This document shows, one piece after another, positions 2,688 to 64,000 of a stretch of DNA of 64,000 bases (position 1 is its first letter; every line of letters begins with the position of its first letter). A program made the translations under genes and the position numbers. Origin of the DNA: Escherichia phage P479; sequence record MW269952.1; one strand, 5' to 3'. The notes beneath the pieces are model-generated. The model was not told the DNA's origin, made no database searches, and saw only the letters and a program-made list of their open reading frames with translations.

Positions 2688-3191
2688 ATGAAAAAGTTAG
2701 CTATCGCAGCTGTTATGCTGCTATCTGGTTGTGCTTACCAGGGCGATGTTGTTAATGCCAACGAGATTGGTAAAGCGCGAATTGCTGCAGACCGTCAGGT
2801 GCACAATGGTTCCTTTGATTTCAAAGGTGGTACTGGACTTATCTACAAACGCGACAACAATCAATGTGGAAACAACTGCGCGAAATATGCTCAACAAGAA
2901 ATTGAGTACAAACGCGAGCAAGCTGCGAAGCATGACGAAATCATTGCCAAGCTGGAAGCAGAAACCAAGCGACAAAATGACCTGGATACTGTTAACCAGA
3001 TTTCACAGGTCTGCATGTCATACATCAATATGCAGATAAACATCATGCGCGCAGAAGCTTATCAGGCAGCAGAGACGGGTTCTCCAAAAGCTAATGAGTA
3101 CCGCGATATGTATCAGCGTTCTGCTCAAAACCGTCTGAGCTATATTAATAAATGTGTAGCTAAAGAGAAAGCACGCCAAGGTATTAACTAA
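2688..3191 (+). CDS. putative lipoprotein
   Basis: Signal peptide with lipobox LLSGC; RBS-spaced ATG. Confidence 0.6.
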   Translation: MKKLAIAAVMLLSGCAYQGDVVNANEIGKARIAADRQVHNGSFDFKGGTGLIYKRDNNQCGNNCAKYAQQEIEYKREQAAKHDEIIAKLEAETKRQNDLDTVNQISQVCMSYINMQINIMRAEAYQAAETGSPKANEYRDMYQRSAQNRLSYINKCVAKEKARQGIN

Positions 3192-10651: not shown

Positions 10652-10659
10652 AGTTCCAC

Positions 10660-10857
10660 CTATATAAGGCCGATTAATGCCAGTGAAACATCTACAACTG
10701 ATTCGAGCGCGACGACTGGTAATATAACACCATGTGCCATTGCAACTGGAGCAACAATGAAGTTCCAGAGTAGAACTAAACAGAGTACCGAAAGGACCAG
10801 AATCGTTCGCTTACGACTGCCTTTGATGGCTTGAATTAGACTAGATAGTTTTAGCAT
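10660..10857 (-). CDS. small membrane protein, paralog B (65 aa)
   Basis: Minus-strand ORF; strong RBS GAAAGGGGGA; late-promoter-like CATAAATA upstream; TM helix LWNFIVAPVAMAHGVILPVV. Confidence 0.55.
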   Translation of the reverse strand: MLKLSSLIQAIKGSRKRTILVLSVLCLVLLWNFIVAPVAMAHGVILPVVALESVVDVSLALIGLI

Positions 10858-10873
10858 ACATCCCCCTTTCTTG

Positions 10874-10881
10874 TATTTATG
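10874..10881 (-). promoter_or_regulatory. late-promoter-like CATAAATA (minus-strand membrane protein pair)
   Basis: 7/8 match to TATAAATA 17 nt upstream of ATG at 10857; strong RBS follows. Confidence 0.4.
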
Positions 10882-10941
10882 CTTTAAACCAATACGATAT
10901 AATTAACATACAAACAACATGAATTGATAAGGAAAAATATA

Positions 10942-11457
10942 ATGGCTCATTTTAATGAATGTTCTCAACTGATTGCTGGTGTTGATAAAGCTCAGGGCGC
11001 TTATGATAATGCAATTTTTGAAGGCACTGACCCACTGCAAGTTATGCTTGATATGCAGAAATCATTGCAGGTTCGTCTGGCTAATGACCGTGATTATTGC
11101 TACCATCCAGATAAATTAGCGACTGCTGGTGATGTTGTTGCTTGGATGCGCGAACAAAAAGACTGCATTGACGATGAATTCCGTGAACTGATTACTTCAT
11201 TGGGTGAAATGTCTAAAGGTGAAAAAGATGCATCTGCTGTCTGGAAAAAATGGAAGGCTCGTTATACTGAAGCGCAAGCTAAACCAATTTCAGAAATGTC
11301 CCCAGAAGACCAGCTTGAAATTAAATTTGAATTAATTGATATCATGCATTTCGTATTCAATATGGCTATTGGTTTGAATATGTCTGCGGAAGAATTGTTC
11401 AAACTGTATTATCTGAAAAATGCCGAGAACTTTGCGAGACAGGACCGTGGCTATTAA
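10942..11457 (+). CDS. 56: gp56-like nucleoside triphosphate pyrophosphatase (dCTPase/dUTPase family)
   Basis: 172 aa from ATG at 10942 (track starts at upstream TTG); all-alpha MazG-like pattern; T4 gp56 is ~171 aa; position between 61 and soc. Confidence 0.7.
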   Translation: MAHFNECSQLIAGVDKAQGAYDNAIFEGTDPLQVMLDMQKSLQVRLANDRDYCYHPDKLATAGDVVAWMREQKDCIDDEFRELITSLGEMSKGEKDASAVWKKWKARYTEAQAKPISEMSPEDQLEIKFELIDIMHFVFNMAIGLNMSAEELFKLYYLKNAENFARQDRGY

Positions 11458-12103
11458 GGCAAGATTTCATAGGACGTATATAATTAAAGTTAAAACGCCG
11501 AAAGGCGTTTTTTGGTATGGTGGTAAACACGAAACCAATGTACTAGACCCATATAAAGACCGATATTCAGGCTCCGGAAAAATACTCTGGAACATATATA
11601 AAAAGTATGGAGTCAAATATCAAATTCGCTGGTTTGTTGGTCACCAGAATAGGGAAATGGCGTTTGAACATGAAAGATATCTAATATCATTATTAAATTC
11701 TAAACATGGTTCAAACTGTATTAATATTTTACCTGGTGGGCAGGGCGGAGGCGGATATGAATGGACTGATGAAATGAAGTTGGCCCAAACACTACGTTTA
11801 AATAAGCCCGAAACTAAAGCTAAAATGAAAAGCGCCCAATGTGTTGCTCAAAATCGCCCTGAACGCAAATCCAGACAATCAAAAGCAATGAGCGAGTTTT
11901 ATGCAAATGGTGGAAATAAAATCGTATCAGAAGCCACATCTAAAGCGCAAAGAACTGCAGCTCATTGGCATGAACCATTGAAAAGTGAAATCTATCAGAT
12001 TTGGCTTTCATTAGGTAAACCCGGTGGAGCTTCTGCTGTGGTTAAAGCACTTAAGGGAAAATACGAAACAACCCCCAGCGCACTTAAACTTTTAATATAT
12101 TAA
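11420..12103 (+). CDS. GIY-YIG homing endonuclease (Seg-like)
   Basis: YIIKVKTPKGVFWYGG ... YSGSGK resembles Seg proteins; start overlaps last 38 nt of gene 56. Confidence 0.65.
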   Translation: MPRTLRDRTVAIKARFHRTYIIKVKTPKGVFWYGGKHETNVLDPYKDRYSGSGKILWNIYKKYGVKYQIRWFVGHQNREMAFEHERYLISLLNSKHGSNCINILPGGQGGGGYEWTDEMKLAQTLRLNKPETKAKMKSAQCVAQNRPERKSRQSKAMSEFYANGGNKIVSEATSKAQRTAAHWHEPLKSEIYQIWLSLGKPGGASAVVKALKGKYETTPSALKLLIY

Positions 12104-21918: not shown

Positions 21919-21936
21919 GGCCTTCGGGCCTTTTTG
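21917..21936 (+). terminator. intrinsic terminator
   Basis: AAGGCC-TTCG-GGCCTT then TTTT. Confidence 0.7.
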
Positions 21937-21981
21937 CTTTAAAATATGTGACTTATAATACCTCCATACACAAGAGGAAAG

Positions 21982-22782
21982 ATGATGATTAATGAAGTAT
22001 TCGGGATAATAAAAAATAAATTTCCTGATTATATTCCACCATCGAGTGGAAATAGTGGGATTTATATAATTTATAATTTAATATCTCAAAAATATTATAT
22101 AGGAAGTTCAAATGATTTTCATCGTAGAATTGCCACGCATTTTCGGAATTTATCCAAAGGTGTTGGCATAAACAGCCATTTACAGTTTGCATATGACAAA
22201 TACGGTAAAGAATCATTTGTATGCGAACTAATAGAAAATATAGAAGTTTATAATAAAAAATATTTCTTGAAAAGAGAAAGTTTCTGGATAACTGAATTAA
22301 ATTCTATCAAAAACGGTTATAATATAACGTTGGCGGATTTTGGTGGTGACACAATGTCCAATCATCCAAGAAAAGCGGAAATTAATTTACTTAAAGGCGA
22401 AGCCGTTAAAAAACGGAATAAACTGTTAGATAAAACCGAATATAATAGAATATATGGAACTGGTGTTAAAAGAAAGCCATACCCCGATGATTTTGGTTAT
22501 AATGTCTCCCTGCGTAAAGCAGGCGAAAATCATCATTTCTTTGGCAAACATCTTTCTCTTGAACACAAAGATAAATTATCAAAATTATTCTCTGGTGGTA
22601 AAAATCCCGAGGCTAAAACGTACTCTATAAATGGGGTCATATTCACAACCCGAAAAGAAGCCGCCGAAGTTCTTGGTATTAGTTATCCTACATTACGAAA
22701 ACGCTGCAAATCCGATGATGTAAAATGGTCCAGTTGGAAATGTTTAGGTTATACTAAAAATTTAGAGGTCAAAAATGATTAA
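21982..22782 (+). CDS. GIY-YIG homing endonuclease (Seg-like)
   Basis: GIYIIYNLISQKYYIGSS; AT-rich; basic C-terminal DNA-binding region; overlaps start of gene 39 by 8 nt. Confidence 0.8.
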   Translation: MMINEVFGIIKNKFPDYIPPSSGNSGIYIIYNLISQKYYIGSSNDFHRRIATHFRNLSKGVGINSHLQFAYDKYGKESFVCELIENIEVYNKKYFLKRESFWITELNSIKNGYNITLADFGGDTMSNHPRKAEINLLKGEAVKKRNKLLDKTEYNRIYGTGVKRKPYPDDFGYNVSLRKAGENHHFFGKHLSLEHKDKLSKLFSGGKNPEAKTYSINGVIFTTRKEAAEVLGISYPTLRKRCKSDDVKWSSWKCLGYTKNLEVKND

Positions 22783-24607
22783 GAATGAAATTCAAATCCT
22801 TTCTGATGTAGCTCACGTAAAAGCTCGCCCATCAATGTACATCGGTAGTGTTACCAATGAAGACAAAGAAATTTTTCTGTTTGGTGAATATAAAAAGGTT
22901 CAATACGTTCCAGGTTTAATTAAATTAATCGAAGAAATTGCAAATAACTCTATTGATGAAGCTATTCGCACCAATTTTAAATTTGCAAACAAAATTTCAT
23001 TGAATATTGATATCAAAACAAACGAAGTGACCGTTGAAGATAATGGTCGAGGCATTCCACAGGCGATTGTTGTAACCCCAGAAGGCGAAGAAATTCCTGG
23101 GCCGGTCGCTGCATGGACCAAGGTTCGTTCGGGTGGAAACTTTAGTGATGATGCAAATCGTGTTACCACTGGGATGAACGGAGTGGGGTCCAGTCTTACC
23201 AACATTTTTTCAATATTGTTCACAGGCACCACATCAGATGGGAAAAATGAATTAACCGTTAATTGTTCAAATGGACTTGATAATATTTCATGGAAATCAA
23301 AACCATCAAAGTTGCAAGGAACTAAAGTTAAATTTATTCCGGATTTTTCGAATTTTGAAACGTCTGGTTTTGACGAAACATATGTCCAAATTATGCTTGA
23401 CCAAATCCAGACTCTTGCAGTCATTTATCCGGATATCGAATTCAAGTTCAATGGTAAAAAAGTGCAAGGTCACTTTAAAAAATATGCCAAGCAATACGAT
23501 GATGAAATCATTATTCAGGAACAAGATAATTGCTCAATTGCAATTGGTCGGTCACCCGATGGTTTCCGTCATGTGACTTATGTTAACGGAATCCATACAA
23601 AAAATGGTGGTCACCATATTGAATGTGTTATGGATGAAATGTGTGATGTGTTAATCCCGGCGATTAAACGCAAGTATAAAATTGAAGTAACCAAAGCACG
23701 CGTTAAAGAATGTATTACATTGTTGATGTTTATTCGCAATATGAAGAACATGCGATTTGATTCCCAGACCAAGGAGCGATTGACTTCTCCGGCTGGCGAA
23801 ATCAAATCACATATCCAGGTTGATGGCAAAAAGTTAGCTGGTTCGTTGTTAAAATCAGAAGCTGTTCTGATGCCTATTATTGAAGCTGCATTAGCCCGTA
23901 AATTGGCTGCAGAGAAAGCAGCAGAGACTAAGGCAAATAAGAAAGCTTCAAAGGCCAAGGTACAAAAGCATATCAAGGCCAACGAATGGGGCAATGATAA
24001 GCTGGAAACGACTCTATTCCTGACCGAAGGGGATTCTGCAACTGGTCCATTTATCAAGGTTCGCGACCGTGAATTGCAAGGTGCTTATCCATTACGTGGT
24101 AAGTTTAAAAACACATGGGGTTTGAAAGCGGTTGACGTTATGAAGAACGCTGAAGCCTTTGATGTGTGTGCAATTACTGGATTAACGATTGGACAACCAG
24201 CCGAGAATATGAATTACCGAAACATTGCTATCATGACAGATGCGGATGTGGATGGCGTCGGTAGTATCTATCCATCGTTATTGGCGTTTTTCAGTAACTG
24301 GCCAGAGCTGTTCCATGAAGGGCGAATTCGCTTTGTGAAAACTCCTGTTATTATTGCACAGCTCAAAGATAAACAAGAATGGTTCTATTCTCTTCCTGAC
24401 TATGAAGAAGCTAAGGATAAACTTCCGAAGCACACCATCCGATATATCAAGGGGCTTGGTTCTCTGGAAGATTCCGAGTACAAACGCGTATTGCTCGAAC
24501 CAGTATTCGAAGTTGTTCAATTACCTGACAACTGGAAAGAACTGTTTGAAATGTTATTCGGTAAAGATTCCCAGCAGCGTAAAGACTGGATGAATGCGAC
24601 GCTATAA
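22775..24607 (+). CDS. 39: DNA topoisomerase II large subunit, gp39 with gp60 region fused
   Basis: 610 aa; GHKL ATPase (IDEAIRTNF, GRGIP) plus TOPRIM (LTEGDSA) in one ORF. Confidence 0.9.
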   Translation: MIKNEIQILSDVAHVKARPSMYIGSVTNEDKEIFLFGEYKKVQYVPGLIKLIEEIANNSIDEAIRTNFKFANKISLNIDIKTNEVTVEDNGRGIPQAIVVTPEGEEIPGPVAAWTKVRSGGNFSDDANRVTTGMNGVGSSLTNIFSILFTGTTSDGKNELTVNCSNGLDNISWKSKPSKLQGTKVKFIPDFSNFETSGFDETYVQIMLDQIQTLAVIYPDIEFKFNGKKVQGHFKKYAKQYDDEIIIQEQDNCSIAIGRSPDGFRHVTYVNGIHTKNGGHHIECVMDEMCDVLIPAIKRKYKIEVTKARVKECITLLMFIRNMKNMRFDSQTKERLTSPAGEIKSHIQVDGKKLAGSLLKSEAVLMPIIEAALARKLAAEKAAETKANKKASKAKVQKHIKANEWGNDKLETTLFLTEGDSATGPFIKVRDRELQGAYPLRGKFKNTWGLKAVDVMKNAEAFDVCAITGLTIGQPAENMNYRNIAIMTDADVDGVGSIYPSLLAFFSNWPELFHEGRIRFVKTPVIIAQLKDKQEWFYSLPDYEEAKDKLPKHTIRYIKGLGSLEDSEYKRVLLEPVFEVVQLPDNWKELFEMLFGKDSQQRKDWMNATL

Positions 24608-54313: not shown

Positions 54314-54378
54314 TGAAAATTCAAATTGTCGGTATTTTATTTCTGGCCGTAATGGTCGGGCTTAACTTCCTACTATGA
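54313..54378 (+). CDS. tiny hydrophobic peptide (21 aa), doubtful
   Basis: TAATG and ATGA coupling; hand-translated. Confidence 0.2.
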   Translation: MKIQIVGILFLAVMVGLNFLL

Positions 54379-54674
54379 AAGCCTGTCGGGTTGTTAACAA
54401 ATATCAATCCGACTTTGATGTGAATATTCAACGGGGTACCATGTGGGGAAATCCATATAAAGATGGTACCCGAGAAGAAAACATAAAGAACTTTAAAGAA
54501 TATTTCATAGCAAAGATTAAATCGGGTGAAATCAAAAGAGAACACCTTGAAACTCTCCGCGGAATGCGATTAGCCTGCACATGCAAACCGAAGTCATGTC
54601 ATGGTGATGTTATCGCTTTGGTCGTTAACAAACTTTTCAAAGACACCTTTTCGCTCGAGGATTTGGGTACATAA
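54375..54674 (+). CDS. hypothetical Cys/His-cluster protein (99 aa)
   Basis: WGNPY and CTCKPKSCHGDV; resembles a DUF4326-like family from memory. Confidence 0.45.
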   Translation: MKACRVVNKYQSDFDVNIQRGTMWGNPYKDGTREENIKNFKEYFIAKIKSGEIKREHLETLRGMRLACTCKPKSCHGDVIALVVNKLFKDTFSLEDLGT

Positions 54675-54733: not shown

Positions 54734-54979
54734 ATGAATTTACGATTTAAACGCCAGTCAGGCGAAGTCATTTTTGAAATGCCACAATTTACCGAACAGG
54801 ATTTACCTGCGCCAAATTCTTATATCACTATTGACGGAATCAAATTTCTGGCCAAAAGACATGAACGTGTCTACTGTCATGATTCAGCCGGTGATGTCCA
54901 GTCATATTTTGACATCACTGTCCAGTCAGAAGAAGAATATAATGATGAAATGACTTCGGAACTACCAGAGACAATTTAA
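54734..54979 (+). CDS. hypothetical protein (81 aa)
   Basis: ORF with RBS GAGAGGAAATTATG. Confidence 0.5.
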   Translation: MNLRFKRQSGEVIFEMPQFTEQDLPAPNSYITIDGIKFLAKRHERVYCHDSAGDVQSYFDITVQSEEEYNDEMTSELPETI

Positions 54980-55012: not shown

Positions 55013-57268
55013 ATGCAAGTACAAAAAAGTAGTGGTGTATCTCAAGATTTTGATGGCCAGAAAATTATTAAAGTTCTTTCTTGGTCATGTGAAGGAACCA
55101 ATATCGACCCATACGAATTATACGAAACAATCAAACCACATCTGCGCGATGGCATGACTACTCGCGATATTCAGACGGTTATCATCAAAGTGTCTGCTGG
55201 GCTTATCTCGGTTGAAGAACCAGATTACCAATATGTTGCAGCCAAAGCTACGATGTTTGCTCTGCGTAAAGATGTTTATGGACAATTTGAGCCGCGTTCT
55301 TTTATTGACCAGATTTCTTATTGTGTTAATGAAGGCAAATACGACCCGGAGCTGTTGTCAAGCTACTCGGCCGAAGAGATTACTTATCTGGAATCTCGTA
55401 TCAAGCATGAACGTGATTTTGACCTGACTTATGCAGGCGCGATGCAACTTAAAGAGAAATACCTGGTTAAAGATAAAACCACTGGTAAAATCTACGAGAC
55501 TCCACAATTCGCTATCATGGCTATCGGCATGGCACTGCACCAGGATGAACCAACGGACCGCCTGAAGCACGTTTGCCGTTTTTATGATGCAGTATCCACC
55601 CGACAGGTTTCGTTGCCCACACCTATCATGGCGGGCGCCAGAACACCTACCAGGCAGTTCAGTTCCTGTGTGGTTATCGAAGCGGCTGACTCCCTGAAGT
55701 CAATTAATAAGACTGCTAATTCAATCATCGAATATATCAGTAAGCGTGCAGGTATCGGTATCAACGTTGGCATGATTCGTGCCGAAGGTTCGAAAATCGG
55801 TATGGGCGAAGTCAAGCATACTGGTGTTATTCCGTTCTGGAAACATTTCCAAACGGCTGTTAAATCATGTTCACAAGGTGGAATCCGTGGCGGCGCTGCT
55901 ACTGCTTATTATCCTATTTGGCATTTGGAAGTTGAAAATTTACTCGTTCTGAAGAACAACAAGGGCGTTGAAGAAAACCGCATCAGACATATGGACTATG
56001 GTGTCCAGCTGAATAACCTGATGATGGAACGACTGGCTAAGAATGATTACATCACTCTGTTTAGTCCACACGAAGCTGGCGGTGAATTGTATTATTCATA
56101 TTTTGATAACCCGGATAAATTCCGCGAGTTATATGAAGCCTTAGAAAAAGACCCGACGGTTCGTAAGAAGCGCATCAAAGCAAAAGATGTATTCGAATTA
56201 TTCATGACCGAACGTTCCGGTACAGCCAGGGTTTATCCGCAGTTCGTCGATAACGTGAATGACTACACTCCGTTCATCCGTGACAAGGCTCCGATTCGTC
56301 AATCAAACCTTTGCTGCGAAATTGCAATCCCAACTACTGATGTGAACAGCGAAGACGCTGAAATCGGATTGTGCACATTGTCTGCATTTGTTCTGGATAG
56401 TTTTGACTGGCAGGACCAAGATAAGATTAACGAGCTAGCCGAAGTTCAAGTTCGTGCACTTGACAACCTGTTGGACTATCAGGGTTATCCGGTTAAAGAA
56501 GCTCTGAAAGCCAAAAAACGCCGCAACCTGGGTGTTGGGGTTACTAACTATGCTGCATGGTTGGCAAGCAATTTCGCTTCCTATGCTGATGCAAATGATT
56601 TAACGCATGAACTGTTCGAGAGATTACAATATGGCCTTATCCGTGCATCAATCAAGCTCGCCAAAGAAAAAGGACCTTGCGAATATTATTCAGACACTCG
56701 TTGGGCTCGAGGCGAATTACCTATCGACTGGTACAATAAAAAGATTGACCAAATCGCAGCTCCAAACTACGTTTGTGACTGGGCGCAGTTGCGGGAAGAC
56801 CTGGTTGAATATGGCATCCGTAATAGCACATTATCAGCACTTATGCCTTGTGAGTCATCTTCCCAAGTTTCTAACAGTACAAACGGTATCGAACCTCCGC
56901 GTGGACCAGTCTCTATTAAAGAGTCAAAAGAGGGTTCCTTTAATCAAGTCGTGCCCAATATTGAGCACAATAAAGGATTGTACGATTACGCATGGGTGCT
57001 AGCTAAGCAGGGTAACAAACCTTATCTGACCCAAGTCGCGATTATGTTGAAATGGATTTGCCAGTCGGCATCAGCAAACACGTATTATGACCCGCAGAAT
57101 TATCCGAAAGGAAAAGTTCCGATGTCAGTTATGCTTGACGACTTGATGTATGGTTGGTACTACGGAATCAAGAATTTTTACTATCACAATACTCGTGATG
57201 GCTCGGGAACAGACGATTACGAAATCGAAGCTCCTAAAGCAGAAGACTGCTCCGCCTGTAAACTGTAA
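55013..57268 (+). CDS. nrdA: Ribonucleotide reductase large subunit NrdA
   Basis: 751 aa; N-terminal ATP cone; class Ia core incl. NLCCEI; terminal Cys pair. Confidence 0.93.
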   Translation: MQVQKSSGVSQDFDGQKIIKVLSWSCEGTNIDPYELYETIKPHLRDGMTTRDIQTVIIKVSAGLISVEEPDYQYVAAKATMFALRKDVYGQFEPRSFIDQISYCVNEGKYDPELLSSYSAEEITYLESRIKHERDFDLTYAGAMQLKEKYLVKDKTTGKIYETPQFAIMAIGMALHQDEPTDRLKHVCRFYDAVSTRQVSLPTPIMAGARTPTRQFSSCVVIEAADSLKSINKTANSIIEYISKRAGIGINVGMIRAEGSKIGMGEVKHTGVIPFWKHFQTAVKSCSQGGIRGGAATAYYPIWHLEVENLLVLKNNKGVEENRIRHMDYGVQLNNLMMERLAKNDYITLFSPHEAGGELYYSYFDNPDKFRELYEALEKDPTVRKKRIKAKDVFELFMTERSGTARVYPQFVDNVNDYTPFIRDKAPIRQSNLCCEIAIPTTDVNSEDAEIGLCTLSAFVLDSFDWQDQDKINELAEVQVRALDNLLDYQGYPVKEALKAKKRRNLGVGVTNYAAWLASNFASYADANDLTHELFERLQYGLIRASIKLAKEKGPCEYYSDTRWARGELPIDWYNKKIDQIAAPNYVCDWAQLREDLVEYGIRNSTLSALMPCESSSQVSNSTNGIEPPRGPVSIKESKEGSFNQVVPNIEHNKGLYDYAWVLAKQGNKPYLTQVAIMLKWICQSASANTYYDPQNYPKGKVPMSVMLDDLMYGWYYGIKNFYYHNTRDGSGTDDYEIEAPKAEDCSACKL

Positions 57269-57909
57269 TGAATTATCAAAACATTTATAATAATTTAATA
57301 TCCCGGGGTAAAACCCGGGAACCTTTAACTGAGTATAAAGAGATTCATCATATTATCCCAAGATGTATGGGTGGCACTGATGAAAAGACAAACCTTGTTG
57401 AGTTAACAGGCCGCGAACATTTCATTGCACATTGGCTTCTTACAAAATTTACCAATTCTGCTGGACTTAATCAAGCCTTTGGTATGATGTGTCTTACCAA
57501 TAAAGGTAGACAATACAATGTTTCTTCTAGACTATACGAAATTGGCAGAAAGCTTTTATCGGAGTCTATGACAGGACGAAAAATGTCTGAGGAAACTAAG
57601 AAGAAAATTAGTGAGACTCTTAAAGGAAGAGAATTCACAAAAGAGCATATTGCTCGTATGCGGAAGCCAAAAACTGAAAAAGCCAAAAAGAATATCGCTG
57701 CAGCTAAGGTTGGTGCGCTTAATCCAATGTATGGTACAATATCTCCAACAAGAGATGTTCCACATACAAAAGAAACATGCGAATTGATTTCTTTAAAAAC
57801 CAAACAAGCCACTGATTATCCGCCCTGTCCACATTGTGGTAAAAAGGTCAATAAGGGTAACGCATTGAGATGGCATTATGATAAATGCAAATTTAAGGAC
57901 TTAAAATGA
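57268..57909 (+). CDS. HNH homing endonuclease (MobE-like) with NUMOD3-type repeats
   Basis: EIHHIIPRCMGG..NLVELTGREHFIAHW; repeats GRKMSEETKKKISETLKG; Zn-finger CPHCGKK; wedged between nrdA and nrdB. Confidence 0.8.
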   Translation: MNYQNIYNNLISRGKTREPLTEYKEIHHIIPRCMGGTDEKTNLVELTGREHFIAHWLLTKFTNSAGLNQAFGMMCLTNKGRQYNVSSRLYEIGRKLLSESMTGRKMSEETKKKISETLKGREFTKEHIARMRKPKTEKAKKNIAAAKVGALNPMYGTISPTRDVPHTKETCELISLKTKQATDYPPCPHCGKKVNKGNALRWHYDKCKFKDLK

Positions 57910-59110: not shown

Positions 59111-59521
59111 ATGAAACAAATCGCTGATGAATACAGTTTTATAAAATATGCGGAGTTAGAGTTAGTCGATGGTAAAATCCCTATCCTTACTCTCGCAAAC
59201 AAGAAAAATGTTATCTATGCTATTTCAGTTGATGATGAACTAGTGTATATTGGTAAGACGAACAACCTTAAGAAGCGTATCAACTATTACCGGACTGCAA
59301 TTAACCGAATTGAACAGACGAGTGATTCAAACAAATCCCGGATGATACATGAAGCTTTACAAGAAGGTAAAAAGGTGATATTCTATGCACGACAATGTTT
59401 CAATCTGTCAATGACCAATGAACTTGGCACAATGTCAGTCGAAACGATGTCTCTGGAAGAGCCGATGTTCATCAAGCTTTTTAATCCCCCGTGGAATTAC
59501 CAACATAAGGTGAAGAAATGA
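59111..59521 (+). CDS. denA: Endonuclease II DenA (GIY-YIG family)
   Basis: 136 aa from ATG 59111 (T4 DenA 136 aa); VIYAISVDDELVYIGKT; adjacent to nrdB. Confidence 0.7.
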   Translation: MKQIADEYSFIKYAELELVDGKIPILTLANKKNVIYAISVDDELVYIGKTNNLKKRINYYRTAINRIEQTSDSNKSRMIHEALQEGKKVIFYARQCFNLSMTNELGTMSVETMSLEEPMFIKLFNPPWNYQHKVKK

Positions 59522-60654
59522 TTGAATTATATGATAACTTAATGAAGCTTTGCGCCGAATCCGATAAAGGTAAGTTTTTCTATACGGATTTTGTTTCTCC
59601 ATTTGAAACTAAGTTCCGCATCTTTAGCTATAACTATGCTTCCTATAGTGATTGGCTTCTTGATGATGCGCTGGAGTGCCGTGGCATTATGTTTGAAATG
59701 GATGACAATGGTCCAGTTCGCATTGCCGCTCGTCCTATGGAAAAATTCTTTAATCTGGGTGAGAATCCAATGACCATGGACCTTAACCTTGATGAGGTTG
59801 TCCTGGTTACTGCAAAAGCTGATGGTAGCTTGGTTTCTACTTATATGGACCAGACTAATATCGCCTTTAAATCCAAAGGGTCAATCAAAAGCTCCCAAGC
59901 TGCTGAATCCTTGCAGGTGTTTAAACAAGAGCATCGCAGTGCATTCAGGGCTCGCGTAACTGAAATTACTGAAGCTGGTTATACATGCAATATGGAATAT
60001 GTTGCACCAACCAACCGTATTGTTTTGCCTTACCAGGAACGTGACCTGATTTTACTGAACGTTCGTCATAATGAAACGGGTGAATATATTCCTTATCGGG
60101 AACTGTTCAAAGATGCTGCACTCCGTCCTTTCCTGGTTGAAGCATATGACCCGGCGAGCATTGAGAATGTTCGTGGTATGAAAGAGATTGAAGGCTTCGT
60201 CTACGAGTTGGTAAGTGGTCAGAAGTTCAAGCTGAAAACAGAATGGTATTGTGCTCTGCACCATACTAAAGACTCCATTAATAATAATGAGCGTCTGTTT
60301 GAAGTTGTTGTTGCTGGCGGCGCAGATGATGTTATTGCCATGTTTACTGGTGATGATTATGCTCGCGAAAAGGTTAATGCCTTTACCATTGTACATCTGG
60401 ATTATCTGTCTAATACGCTGGGATTGTTGCTTGATGCCCAGAAACAATTGGCAGGAAAAGACCGTCGTGAGTTTGCGATTAAAGGTCAAGAGTTGTGTAA
60501 ACCATATCCGGGATTGTTCTCCGTATTAATGAACACCTATCAACGCCCACAGGAAACTGAACAAACGATTGATCAAATCAATAAAGTTTTCCTTAAAAAT
60601 CATAAACTTTACATTCCGTCGGACTACCAAGCGGAAGTAATCCTTCCTGAATAA
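59518..60654 (+). CDS. rnlA: RNA ligase 1 (gp63)
   Basis: 378 aa; RIFSYNYASYSDWLL, ECRGIMFEMD, ligase lysine motif KADGSL match T4 Rnl1. Confidence 0.9.
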   Translation: MIELYDNLMKLCAESDKGKFFYTDFVSPFETKFRIFSYNYASYSDWLLDDALECRGIMFEMDDNGPVRIAARPMEKFFNLGENPMTMDLNLDEVVLVTAKADGSLVSTYMDQTNIAFKSKGSIKSSQAAESLQVFKQEHRSAFRARVTEITEAGYTCNMEYVAPTNRIVLPYQERDLILLNVRHNETGEYIPYRELFKDAALRPFLVEAYDPASIENVRGMKEIEGFVYELVSGQKFKLKTEWYCALHHTKDSINNNERLFEVVVAGGADDVIAMFTGDDYAREKVNAFTIVHLDYLSNTLGLLLDAQKQLAGKDRREFAIKGQELCKPYPGLFSVLMNTYQRPQETEQTIDQINKVFLKNHKLYIPSDYQAEVILPE

Positions 60655-60659
60655 TAAAA

Positions 60660-60725
60660 AAGGGGTGTACAAGCCCCTTCTTTCTATACATAATGGTTCC
60701 ATCAACTACTGATGAGGACTAAAAC
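60660..60725 (+). promoter_or_regulatory. terminator-like hairpin carrying -35 in its loop, plus -10 and leader box
   Basis: AGGGGtgtacaaGCCCCTT; CATAAT 60689-60694 (18-bp spacer); box CCATCAACTACTGATGAGGA. Confidence 0.6.
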
Positions 60726-60959
60726 ATGTTAAACTTAATTACAAATGAAAGAGTTACACAGGCATATGGTGACAGTAATGACGGAATCTATGTCTACAAG
60801 GGAGACCGCCGGATTGGTTTCATTACTGACCTGAAGGCCAAATTGTTAAAAGAACTGAAAGCTCAAACAGGTGATTCTGGGTTTAGAGCAAGAGCCAAAA
60901 AGAAAGATGAACGCCTGGGTGCCAACTCTTTTGGTCCTAGAGGTTACAACCGCTACTAA
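60726..60959 (+). CDS. hypothetical basic protein (77 aa)
   Basis: Shares DGIYVYKG..GF.TDL N-terminal module with the next ORF. Confidence 0.5.
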   Translation: MLNLITNERVTQAYGDSNDGIYVYKGDRRIGFITDLKAKLLKELKAQTGDSGFRARAKKKDERLGANSFGPRGYNRY

Positions 60960-60972
60960 TGAGGAAAATATT

Positions 60973-61476
60973 ATGAATATGCAACTGATTTCAAATGATA
61001 TGATTGTTGATGTATATGGTGACCGCCATGACGGAATCTATGTTTATAAAGGTTCCAAAAATGTTGGGTTCCTTACTGACTTAAGAAAGAAACTGGCGTC
61101 TGATAATAAGTTGAAGGCGAAACAAAAAGAATATCGTGATAAGAAATCAGAAGAGCGGAAAGAAGCCCTTCATGAATCTGTTCCCGAAATGGTTGACTTC
61201 TTAAAGAACCATTTGGTTAAATATGATGCAGAAGTGTTCATCAATCAGACCCAACCTAATGTGCATATCAATGGATGTGTTTGTTATGTTGTGGTTGAAC
61301 CCCTGACACTTCAACACCGCCTGGGAATTAAACACCCAGTGTTAACCCAGGATGATATGGCGGATGAAGTTGGTAATCAGTTCCGCATTTCAACATCTGA
61401 CAGTACAAATCACATCCTCCTGAATGGTTTATCCCAGGATGATATTGTTGAGGTAATCATCAAGTTATGCAAATAA
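60973..61476 (+). CDS. hypothetical protein (167 aa)
   Basis: In-frame ATG 60973; occupies the T4 alc position, similarity not assessed. Confidence 0.5.
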   Translation: MNMQLISNDMIVDVYGDRHDGIYVYKGSKNVGFLTDLRKKLASDNKLKAKQKEYRDKKSEERKEALHESVPEMVDFLKNHLVKYDAEVFINQTQPNVHINGCVCYVVVEPLTLQHRLGIKHPVLTQDDMADEVGNQFRISTSDSTNHILLNGLSQDDIVEVIIKLCK

Positions 61477-61820
61477 GTAATCTCACCACAGGGCTTATGC
61501 TCGCCCTGGTAGTAACTGCTGGTAGTGGTTTCTATCTAAAAGCAAAAGTGGATAATCTCAAGACGGCGGTGGCGGAAGTCACCAAAGTCGCAGAAGATAA
61601 TGCGAAAAATCTGCAATCAGTAAAAGACCAGGTTAATCAAATTAATCTCCTTGACCAACAGCGACAGGAATATGTTGAACACCTGCAGAAGGAAAATGAT
61701 AAACTTCGCGCAGATGCAAAACGTACTAAGGTTGTGGCAGCGAAGCCTAAATTAGTCGAAAAACAGATTAATCAGTCATTTGATAAGTTCGCCCAGGACT
61801 TCCAGGAGCTCACCAAATGA
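61467..61820 (+). CDS. i-spanin (PseT.3-like)
   Basis: 117 aa; N-terminal TM then coiled coil; start overlaps next gene; adjacent to pseT. Confidence 0.6.
   Translation: MQISNLTTGLMLALVVTAGSGFYLKAKVDNLKTAVAEVTKVAEDNAKNLQSVKDQVNQINLLDQQRQEYVEHLQKENDKLRADAKRTKVVAAKPKLVEKQINQSFDKFAQDFQELTK

Positions 61821-62274: not shown

Positions 62275-64000
<1,726 letters not shown>

Follow-up and report, generated by a model that had tools for sequence, protein, structure and literature searches.

The alc locus of Escherichia phage P479 carries two Alc-related genes in tandem: a full-length alc (ORF167) and, directly upstream, a short gene (ORF77) that is a truncated alc paralogue keeping only the N-terminal module of Alc. 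That both genes are real, and that these are their identities, we regard as almost certain. The explanation that accounts best for the data overall, and to which we give about an even chance, is that the phage maintains by selection, next to alc, an N-domain-only paralogue that would dock at the site used by Alc itself. The analysis covers a stretch of 64,000 nucleotides of the phage genome (sequence record MW269952.1), here called the window, and follows up a sequence-only reading of this DNA that had pointed out two adjacent ORFs with a common N terminus. Both are present on the + strand, at 60726–60959 and 60973–61476. The features of the locus are:

59518–60654, + strand: rnlA (RNA ligase 1), the upstream neighbour; matches Pfam T4_Rnl1_C (E 2.8e-42) and RNA_lig_T4_1 (E 3.4e-23) and is named rnlA in Shigella phage SP18
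60660–60679, + strand: terminator-like hairpin, AAGGGG...CCCCTT followed by a T-rich tail, just 3' of rnlA; from a consensus scan only
60714–60718, + strand: Shine-Dalgarno GAGGA, 7 nt 5' of the ORF77 ATG; read from the sequence
60726–60959, + strand: ORF77, short Alc paralogue, 77 aa (alcb of SP18, VR7ORF243c, PHROG 17715); PF17527 E 7.3e-11, phrog_17715 E 2.9e-53
60726–60860, + strand: ORF77 residues 1–45, Alc-type N-terminal module; secondary structure in the AlphaFold2 model as in Alc residues 1–45
60861–60956, + strand: ORF77 residues 46–77, basic tail rich in glycine and aromatic residues, unlike Alc; from the Alc HMM, pLDDT and dN/dS
60912–60956, + strand: ORF77 C-terminal motif RLGANSFGPRGYNRY (consensus RLGxNSFGPxGxN[RK][YF]); 10 of 15 residues identical to the divergent short protein P0048
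60961–60965, + strand: Shine-Dalgarno GAGGA, 7 nt 5' of the alc ATG; read from the sequence
60973–61476, + strand: ORF167, alc (alca of SP18), 167 aa; PF17527 E 2.5e-50, phrog_1253 E 1.9e-74
60973–61083, + strand: Alc residues 1–37, the N-terminal module common to ORF77; from conservation, the AlphaFold2 model and seven of the eight invariant residues
61072–61212, + strand: Alc residues 34–80, a single long helix (the 'Lys-rich linker'); AlphaFold2 pLDDT 87–96, 49% charged
61213–61473, + strand: Alc residues 81–167, C-terminal alpha/beta domain with a conserved DAEVFINxTQPNVH motif; missing from ORF77
61467–61820, + strand: pseT.3 (Rz-like i-spanin), the downstream neighbour; phrog_739 E 1.9e-36, annotated in SP18

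The gene order nrdB-denA-rnlA-[ORF77]-ORF167-pseT.3-pseT.2-small ORF-pseT, in which denA encodes a GIY-YIG EndoII, places the pair at the position of T4 alc, as the sequence-only reading had recognized; ORF167 is moreover Alc itself. The genes are tightly packed: 13 nt separate the stop codon of ORF77 from the ATG of ORF167, and pseT.3 starts within alc, sharing 10 nt with its end. ORF77 begins at the first start codon after an in-frame TAA (60720–60722), and the two Alc-related genes share an identical start signal, GAGGA-7 nt-ATG. In the program-made list of open reading frames, the alc frame is open upstream to a GTG at 60871, inside ORF77; in the family alignment the invariant M1 falls on the ATG at 60973, which marks this ATG as the conserved alc start. 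Several GenBank records, and the protein clusters P0003 and P0004 (188–189 aa), annotate Alc with an N-terminal extension into the short gene. The hairpin after rnlA overlaps a weak sigma-70-like match (TGTACA-17-CATAAT, 60666–60694). A promoter of its own was considered for ORF77 and rejected: the sole candidate is this match (9 of 12 positions) inside the hairpin, and the consensus scan near rnlA returned neither hairpins nor sigma-70-like matches above shuffle expectation. The GC-rich hairpin before the short paralogue might act as a partial terminator or serve in RNA stability.

By its sequence, ORF167 is the full-length Alc orthologue of the phage. It scores 171 bits against PF17527, far over the curated cut-off of 25 bits, with residues 1–166 aligned to positions 1–176 of the 177 in the profile; the match to phrog_1253 has an E value of 1.9e-74, and identity to T4-type Alc is 54%. 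The placement of alc between rnlA and the pseT.3/pseT.2 spanin genes, which is conserved in T4-like genomes, is found here too. An AlphaFold2 model with a mean pLDDT of 92 divides the protein into the N-terminal module (helix 8–15, hairpin 23–26/29–33), the helix spanning residues 34–80, and an alpha/beta domain at 87–166. The helix has nearly no hydrophobic periodicity and no heptad pattern, and in the model would act as a rigid spacer, not as a coiled coil. A search of the PDB found no sequence relative of Alc with a solved structure.

The short protein combines two unlike parts. Its match to PF17527 (42.5 bits, above the same cut-off) is confined to residues 2–59, on profile positions 3–62 of 177; PHROG 17715, in turn, covers it end to end, residues 1–77 on profile positions 1–77. 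The predicted fold of the N-terminal part (pLDDT 77–93 over residues 1–40) repeats that of Alc, with a helix at 7–14, a beta-hairpin at 22–25/28–32 and the start of a helix, and it retains the family-invariant I, G, D-G-I and G. With only 77 residues, the protein has neither the charged helix nor the C-terminal alpha/beta domain with its invariant P95 and FINxTQPNVH. Because these parts are missing and the tail scores -1.9 bits on the Alc profile, ORF77 is best described as a paralogue of the Alc N-domain and not as a complete Alc. Of the 32 residues of the tail, 8 are K/R, 5 G and 4 aromatic, and disorder is predicted from residue 52 (pLDDT below 50 at 52–55 and 59–77). As a source for it, a piece of Alc altered by frameshift or internal deletion was rejected on the same -1.9 bits and on a tblastn comparison with three alc genes in all frames, which returned nothing, including no out-of-frame match to alc DNA. 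The pairing by MAFFT of DERLGANSFGPRGY in ORF77 with DAEVFINQTQPNVH in Alc was likewise discarded, being without statistical support. No NCBIfam model matches, and the tail motif matched nothing identifiable.

The homology of the two N termini is beyond chance. The motif quoted in the sequence-only reading, YGD..DGIYVYKG....GF(I/L)TDL(K/R)(A/K)KL, occurs exactly as given in both ORFs and is followed by a Lys-rich stretch, after which the two sequences diverge. That reading had left the significance of the likeness to be settled by alignment statistics: BLASTP between ORF77 and ORF167 gives 27/62 identities (44%) and 40/62 positives at E 3e-16, and an HMM built from full-length Alc proteins only matches ORF77 residues 2–60 at E 7e-20. 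Its estimate of about 35 residues for the shared module proved too short, as the core spans about 37–45 residues and similarity is detectable to about residue 60; the homology itself is genuine. Within the Alc family, the N-terminal module is more conserved than either the helix or the C-terminal domain as a whole. Seven of the eight invariant residues of the family alignment lie in it (M1, I6, G16, D20, G21, I22, G32), and ORF77 keeps all seven. The suggestion that the shared N terminus is a common binding module is therefore a plausible one, which fits this pattern of conservation.

ORF77 is a real gene under purifying selection. Thirteen genomes were compared (the window, SP18, VR7, VR20, VR25, VR26, RZ, DK-13, MN01, EAWsc9, YenM_P8, TH44 and UPEC01), and ORF77 is intact in every one of them, at 92–100% DNA identity. 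Its Nei-Gojobori dN/dS of 0.107 across this set is in line with those of alc (0.105), pseT.3 (0.099) and pseT.2 (0.145). The most constrained part of the short protein is its tail: residues 46–77 have a dN/dS of 0.033, with 12 synonymous variable sites set against 2 variable amino acid positions. The C-terminal domain of Alc, with a dN/dS of 0.034, is almost invariant within the genus.

Where does the short gene occur? Over the 1-kb region around the pair, identity reaches 100% with Escherichia phage 212, 99.8% with Shigella phage SP18 and 94–99% with about 30 further records; every one of these that was checked belongs to Gaprivervirus. A tblastn search of 50,697 phage records found the full 77-aa gene only in about 34 Gaprivervirus-like records, the other matches (about 760) being the N termini of ordinary alc genes. 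A word-index search of 5.8 billion proteins returned two clusters for the short family, and an HMMER profile search of 1.84 billion representatives returned 35 that belong to the Alc family, among which P0048 is the only genuine divergent short form. Other candidates fell away on inspection: P0045 is a frameshifted T4-type alc, P0002 a frameshifted ORF77, and the N-terminal matches P0062 and P0067 resemble truncated or partial alc products. Scans of IMG/VR and metagenomes for further members of the short family returned only near-identical Gapriverviruses, and a DNA pattern for the tail motif found only VR20, VR25 and VR26 in addition to two chance matches.

P0048, 78 aa long and 45% identical to ORF77, is encoded on an 1828-bp contig (L020; Logan contig SRR24146912_118039, the pair at 1046–1796), after rnlA and before the gene for a 167-aa Alc. 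The best DNA matches of this contig are Gapriverviruses at about 71% identity, and it represents an uncultured relative. Between ORF77 and P0048, 19 of 38 residues are identical in the module, 6 of 25 in the linker and 10 of the last 15, a comparison that defines the C-terminal motif RLGxNSFGPxGxN[RK][YF] as the best-conserved part between the two proteins. Alc is 79% identical between this contig and the window and the short protein only 45%, so that outside its C-terminal motif the short gene is the faster-evolving of the two. On these sequence comparisons, the short gene predates the genus Gaprivervirus and is specific to it and to one uncultured sister lineage.

The pair has been recorded before. 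The SP18 record of 2010 names alcb ('similar to N-terminal region of JS98 Alc') and alca, and the gene pair is thus already in public annotation; the VR7 record lists the short gene as VR7ORF243c, 'similar to T4 Alc', and other records label it as hypothetical or as a 'PRC domain' protein. We found no literature on alca/alcb, be it a functional, an expression or an evolutionary analysis. With the gene pair and the gene 42 puzzle discussed below known before, what is new here is the evidence for selection, the second lineage and the conserved tail motif.

The copy could have arisen either by local duplication or by acquisition of a fragment of T4-type alc. A 39-nt core is 85% identical between ORF77 and the alc of the same genome, and this core has no DNA match to a T4-type alc; at the protein level, the module of ORF77 is nearer to T4-type Alc (27/42) than to the neighbouring Alc (22/42). 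Concerted evolution or gene conversion between the two N-terminal modules was rejected, given that ORF77 is nearer to T4-type Alc and that the short and long modules of contig L020 are not specially alike. The first 50 codons of alc (60973–61122) fall into two allele classes among the Gapriverviruses L001 and L007–L017, MNMQLISNDMIVDVYGD...SKNVGF and MDMQLISNEMIVNEYGD...TKKIGL. In the same sequences, pS is 0.32 over these codons compared with 0.09 in the rest of the gene, and the classes do not follow the variants of ORF77. The pattern of alc alleles looks like recombination, with a putative breakpoint at the module boundary.

What might an isolated N-terminal module of Alc, a classic phage factor, do? 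The biochemistry is known for T4 Alc only, which terminates host RNA polymerase on cytosine-containing DNA and not on modified DNA. It acts on the elongating polymerase, and the paf mutations in the beta-subunit (R368, P372) abolish its action. How Alc terminates transcription was not known according to a 2010 review, and we found no mapping in the literature of the part of Alc that contacts RNA polymerase. We take the N-terminal module to be a docking module because seven of the eight family-invariant residues are located there; its target would most likely be the beta-subunit site defined by the paf mutations. The long charged helix would then serve as a rigid spacer, and the C-terminal domain of Alc would be the effector or the DNA-sensing part. 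The short protein would dock at the site of Alc without bringing a C-terminal domain, and could either tune or compete with Alc, or present the polymerase with a tail motif of its own while the host is being shut off. This combination of docking and modulation is offered tentatively, its chance being somewhat short of even. Alternatively, the module could bind DNA or mediate self-association.

Self-association underlies the rival explanation that fares best, although it is an unlikely one: the module would be a self-association surface, and through it ORF77 would join Alc in a heterodimer and regulate or poison it, without binding RNA polymerase alone. The arrangement of the genes would suit such a complex, as they lie side by side, share their start signal and are probably translated together. 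The predicted module, a small helix-hairpin-helix unit, could pair, and the 39-nt core shared at 85% identity by the two genes of one genome is also in its favour. A dimer by way of a coiled coil is nevertheless unlikely because the Alc helix 34–80 is 49% charged and has no heptads. Nor do the short and long N-terminal modules co-vary: the window and UPEC01 encode the same ORF77 protein (99% DNA identity) but carry different alleles of the Alc N terminus, and in contig L020 the likeness of the two modules does not exceed the family average. We also found no literature report of Alc as an oligomer.

A second rival, which we consider improbable, concerns the tail. Here, ORF77 would be a small nucleic-acid-binding protein that acts independently of RNA polymerase, its basic tail conferring either nucleoid unfolding in the manner of unf or RNA binding. 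The composition of the tail and its predicted disorder are in keeping with such a role. Furthermore, T4 alc and unf are the same gene, according to the title of a cited paper, and GenBank notes call Alc 'RNA pol- and DNA-binding'. However, what is best conserved in the tail is a specific motif and not a general basic character, which points to a defined partner.

The sequence-only reading had gone in another direction, proposing that Alc has no obvious role on unmodified DNA. This premise is only partly right. The window extends over gene 43, uvsX, 41, 61, 56, rIIA/rIIB, denB, ndd, motA, tail-fibre genes, 32, td, nrdAB and pseT, so that the absence of gene 42 and beta-gt between uvsX and gene 43 was visible from the sequence, and in tblastn and phmmer searches T4 gp42, the dCMP hydroxymethylase, finds no homologue in it or in the complete SP18 genome; no glucosyltransferase was found in either. 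A hidden gene 42 was considered and rejected on the same searches. The interval between uvsX and gene 43, which in T4 contains beta-gt and gene 42, holds a 167-aa ORF instead (2688–3191, + strand) that has no Pfam hit, and whose SP18 counterpart has a lipoprotein-like N terminus (LLSGC). The argument as put is nevertheless not supported. The phage retains the dCTPase gp56, denA, denB and ndd, and Gordeeva et al. (2018) reported for VR7, a phage of the same genus, DNA with modified, non-glycosylated cytosines, based on restriction digests in which the chemical nature of the modification was not determined. Taken together with the constraint on alc, these points lead us to conclude that the DNA of the phage is probably modified, by a route other than gene 42, and that Alc probably keeps its role. 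A missing gene 42 alone does not imply that Alc is without a role, and the strong constraint on alc (dN/dS 0.105) agrees with this.

Carried to its end, the argument from unmodified DNA would make a classical Alc useless or suicidal on cytosine-containing phage DNA, with both Alc-like proteins repurposed around the shared binding module. We see little chance of this. The absence of gene 42 and of a glucosyltransferase from the window and from the whole SP18 genome is what recommends it, and two papers report that Gapriverviruses are without the hydroxymethylase. The same two papers, however, note that these phages have dCTPase, DenA, DenB and Alc, and each of them suggests a non-canonical base of unknown kind: in T4, keeping dCTPase, denA and denB is sensible only with a non-canonical cytosine. 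The restriction analysis of VR7 DNA argues against repurposing as well, and the nearly invariant C-terminal domain of Alc, together with 54% identity to the T4-type protein, fits a conserved function. The region of gene 56 (about 10652–11458, + strand), which encodes the dCTPase, is only about 83% identical to SP18, with flanks at 94–97%, and represents a locally divergent allele of a gene on which the question of cytosine modification turns.

Several other intervals of the window differ from SP18 or carry putative mobile elements. A 213-aa ORF between nrdA and nrdB (57268–57909, + strand), in an interval that does not align with SP18, contains HNH and NUMOD3 motifs and would thus be a free-standing homing endonuclease in a mobE-like position. 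Upstream of gene 39, a 266-aa ORF (21982–22779, + strand) has GIY-YIG, NUMOD3 and an I-TevI DNA-binding domain, which suggests a Seg-like homing endonuclease; the stretch around it, from about 21920 to 23555, has no alignment with SP18. On the opposite strand, an antisense ORF (63393–63950, - strand) shares about 87 nt with the 3' end of pseT and gives a weak NUMOD3 match; in SP18 (gp235) it is annotated as a homing endonuclease. Two small ORFs between td and nrdA, in a stretch that likewise does not align with SP18, match DUF4326 (54375–54674, + strand; E 9e-22) and DUF5496 (54734–54979, + strand; E 7e-11).

Finally, the notion of ORF77 as a functionless relic, in decay since alc was partially duplicated in tandem, for which its truncation relative to Alc, a tail without homologue and the existence of similar-sized frameshifted alc fragments such as P0045 (63 aa, T4-type) and P0002 could be cited, is largely refuted by the selection analysis and effectively excluded, since ORF77 is intact in 13 of 13 genomes, has a dN/dS like those of alc and the spanins overall and of 0.033 in its unique tail, possesses its own strong Shine-Dalgarno, and has a counterpart with the C-terminal motif conserved in a lineage whose DNA identity is only about 71%.

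A selectively maintained N-domain-only paralogue suggests that the module works alone, which would make it a small reagent for mapping the contact of Alc on RNA polymerase. A bolder version of docking at the Alc site is that the short protein is a dedicated RNA polymerase-docking regulator, from the one T-even lineage without dCMP hydroxymethylase, which tunes how Alc discriminates between phage and host DNA under another cytosine modification. We rate this version as a long shot; the link between the short gene and the loss of gene 42 is inseparable from shared ancestry because it rests on a single lineage. If it were true, nature would already have split Alc into an anchor and an effector, giving a direct handle on the mechanism of Alc. 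For the genus as a whole, the retention of an anti-cytosine-DNA toolkit (dCTPase, EndoII, EndoIV, Alc) without gene 42 points to a further cytosine-modification pathway.

We close by placing the locus next to the systems that are known. The gene order is that of T4 with one extra gene, ORF77; in RB51, a T4-type phage, and in JS98, alc is single and follows rnlA at a distance of 64 nt, without a short copy. An earlier review described the distribution of alc as matching that of gene 42, whereas in this phage alc is present and gene 42 absent. T4 Alc, the alc/unf product (PF17527, PHROG 1253), equals ORF167 in length (167 aa) and in its placement between rnlA and pseT.3. Compared with T4 Alc, ORF77 is without about 100 residues, that is, most of the charged helix and the entire C-terminal alpha/beta domain, and has an unrelated tail instead. 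For the C-terminal domain of Alc, the comparison system is the 'double-wing' DNA-binding domain at the C terminus of T4 MotA (PDB 5jlt, 6k4y). The closest counterparts of the short gene are ORF77 under other names: PHROG 17715, a 77-aa profile labelled 'inhibitor of host transcription' by similarity only, is the same gene, and alcb of SP18, which stands next to alca, the long Alc of that phage, encodes a protein 100% identical to ORF77.
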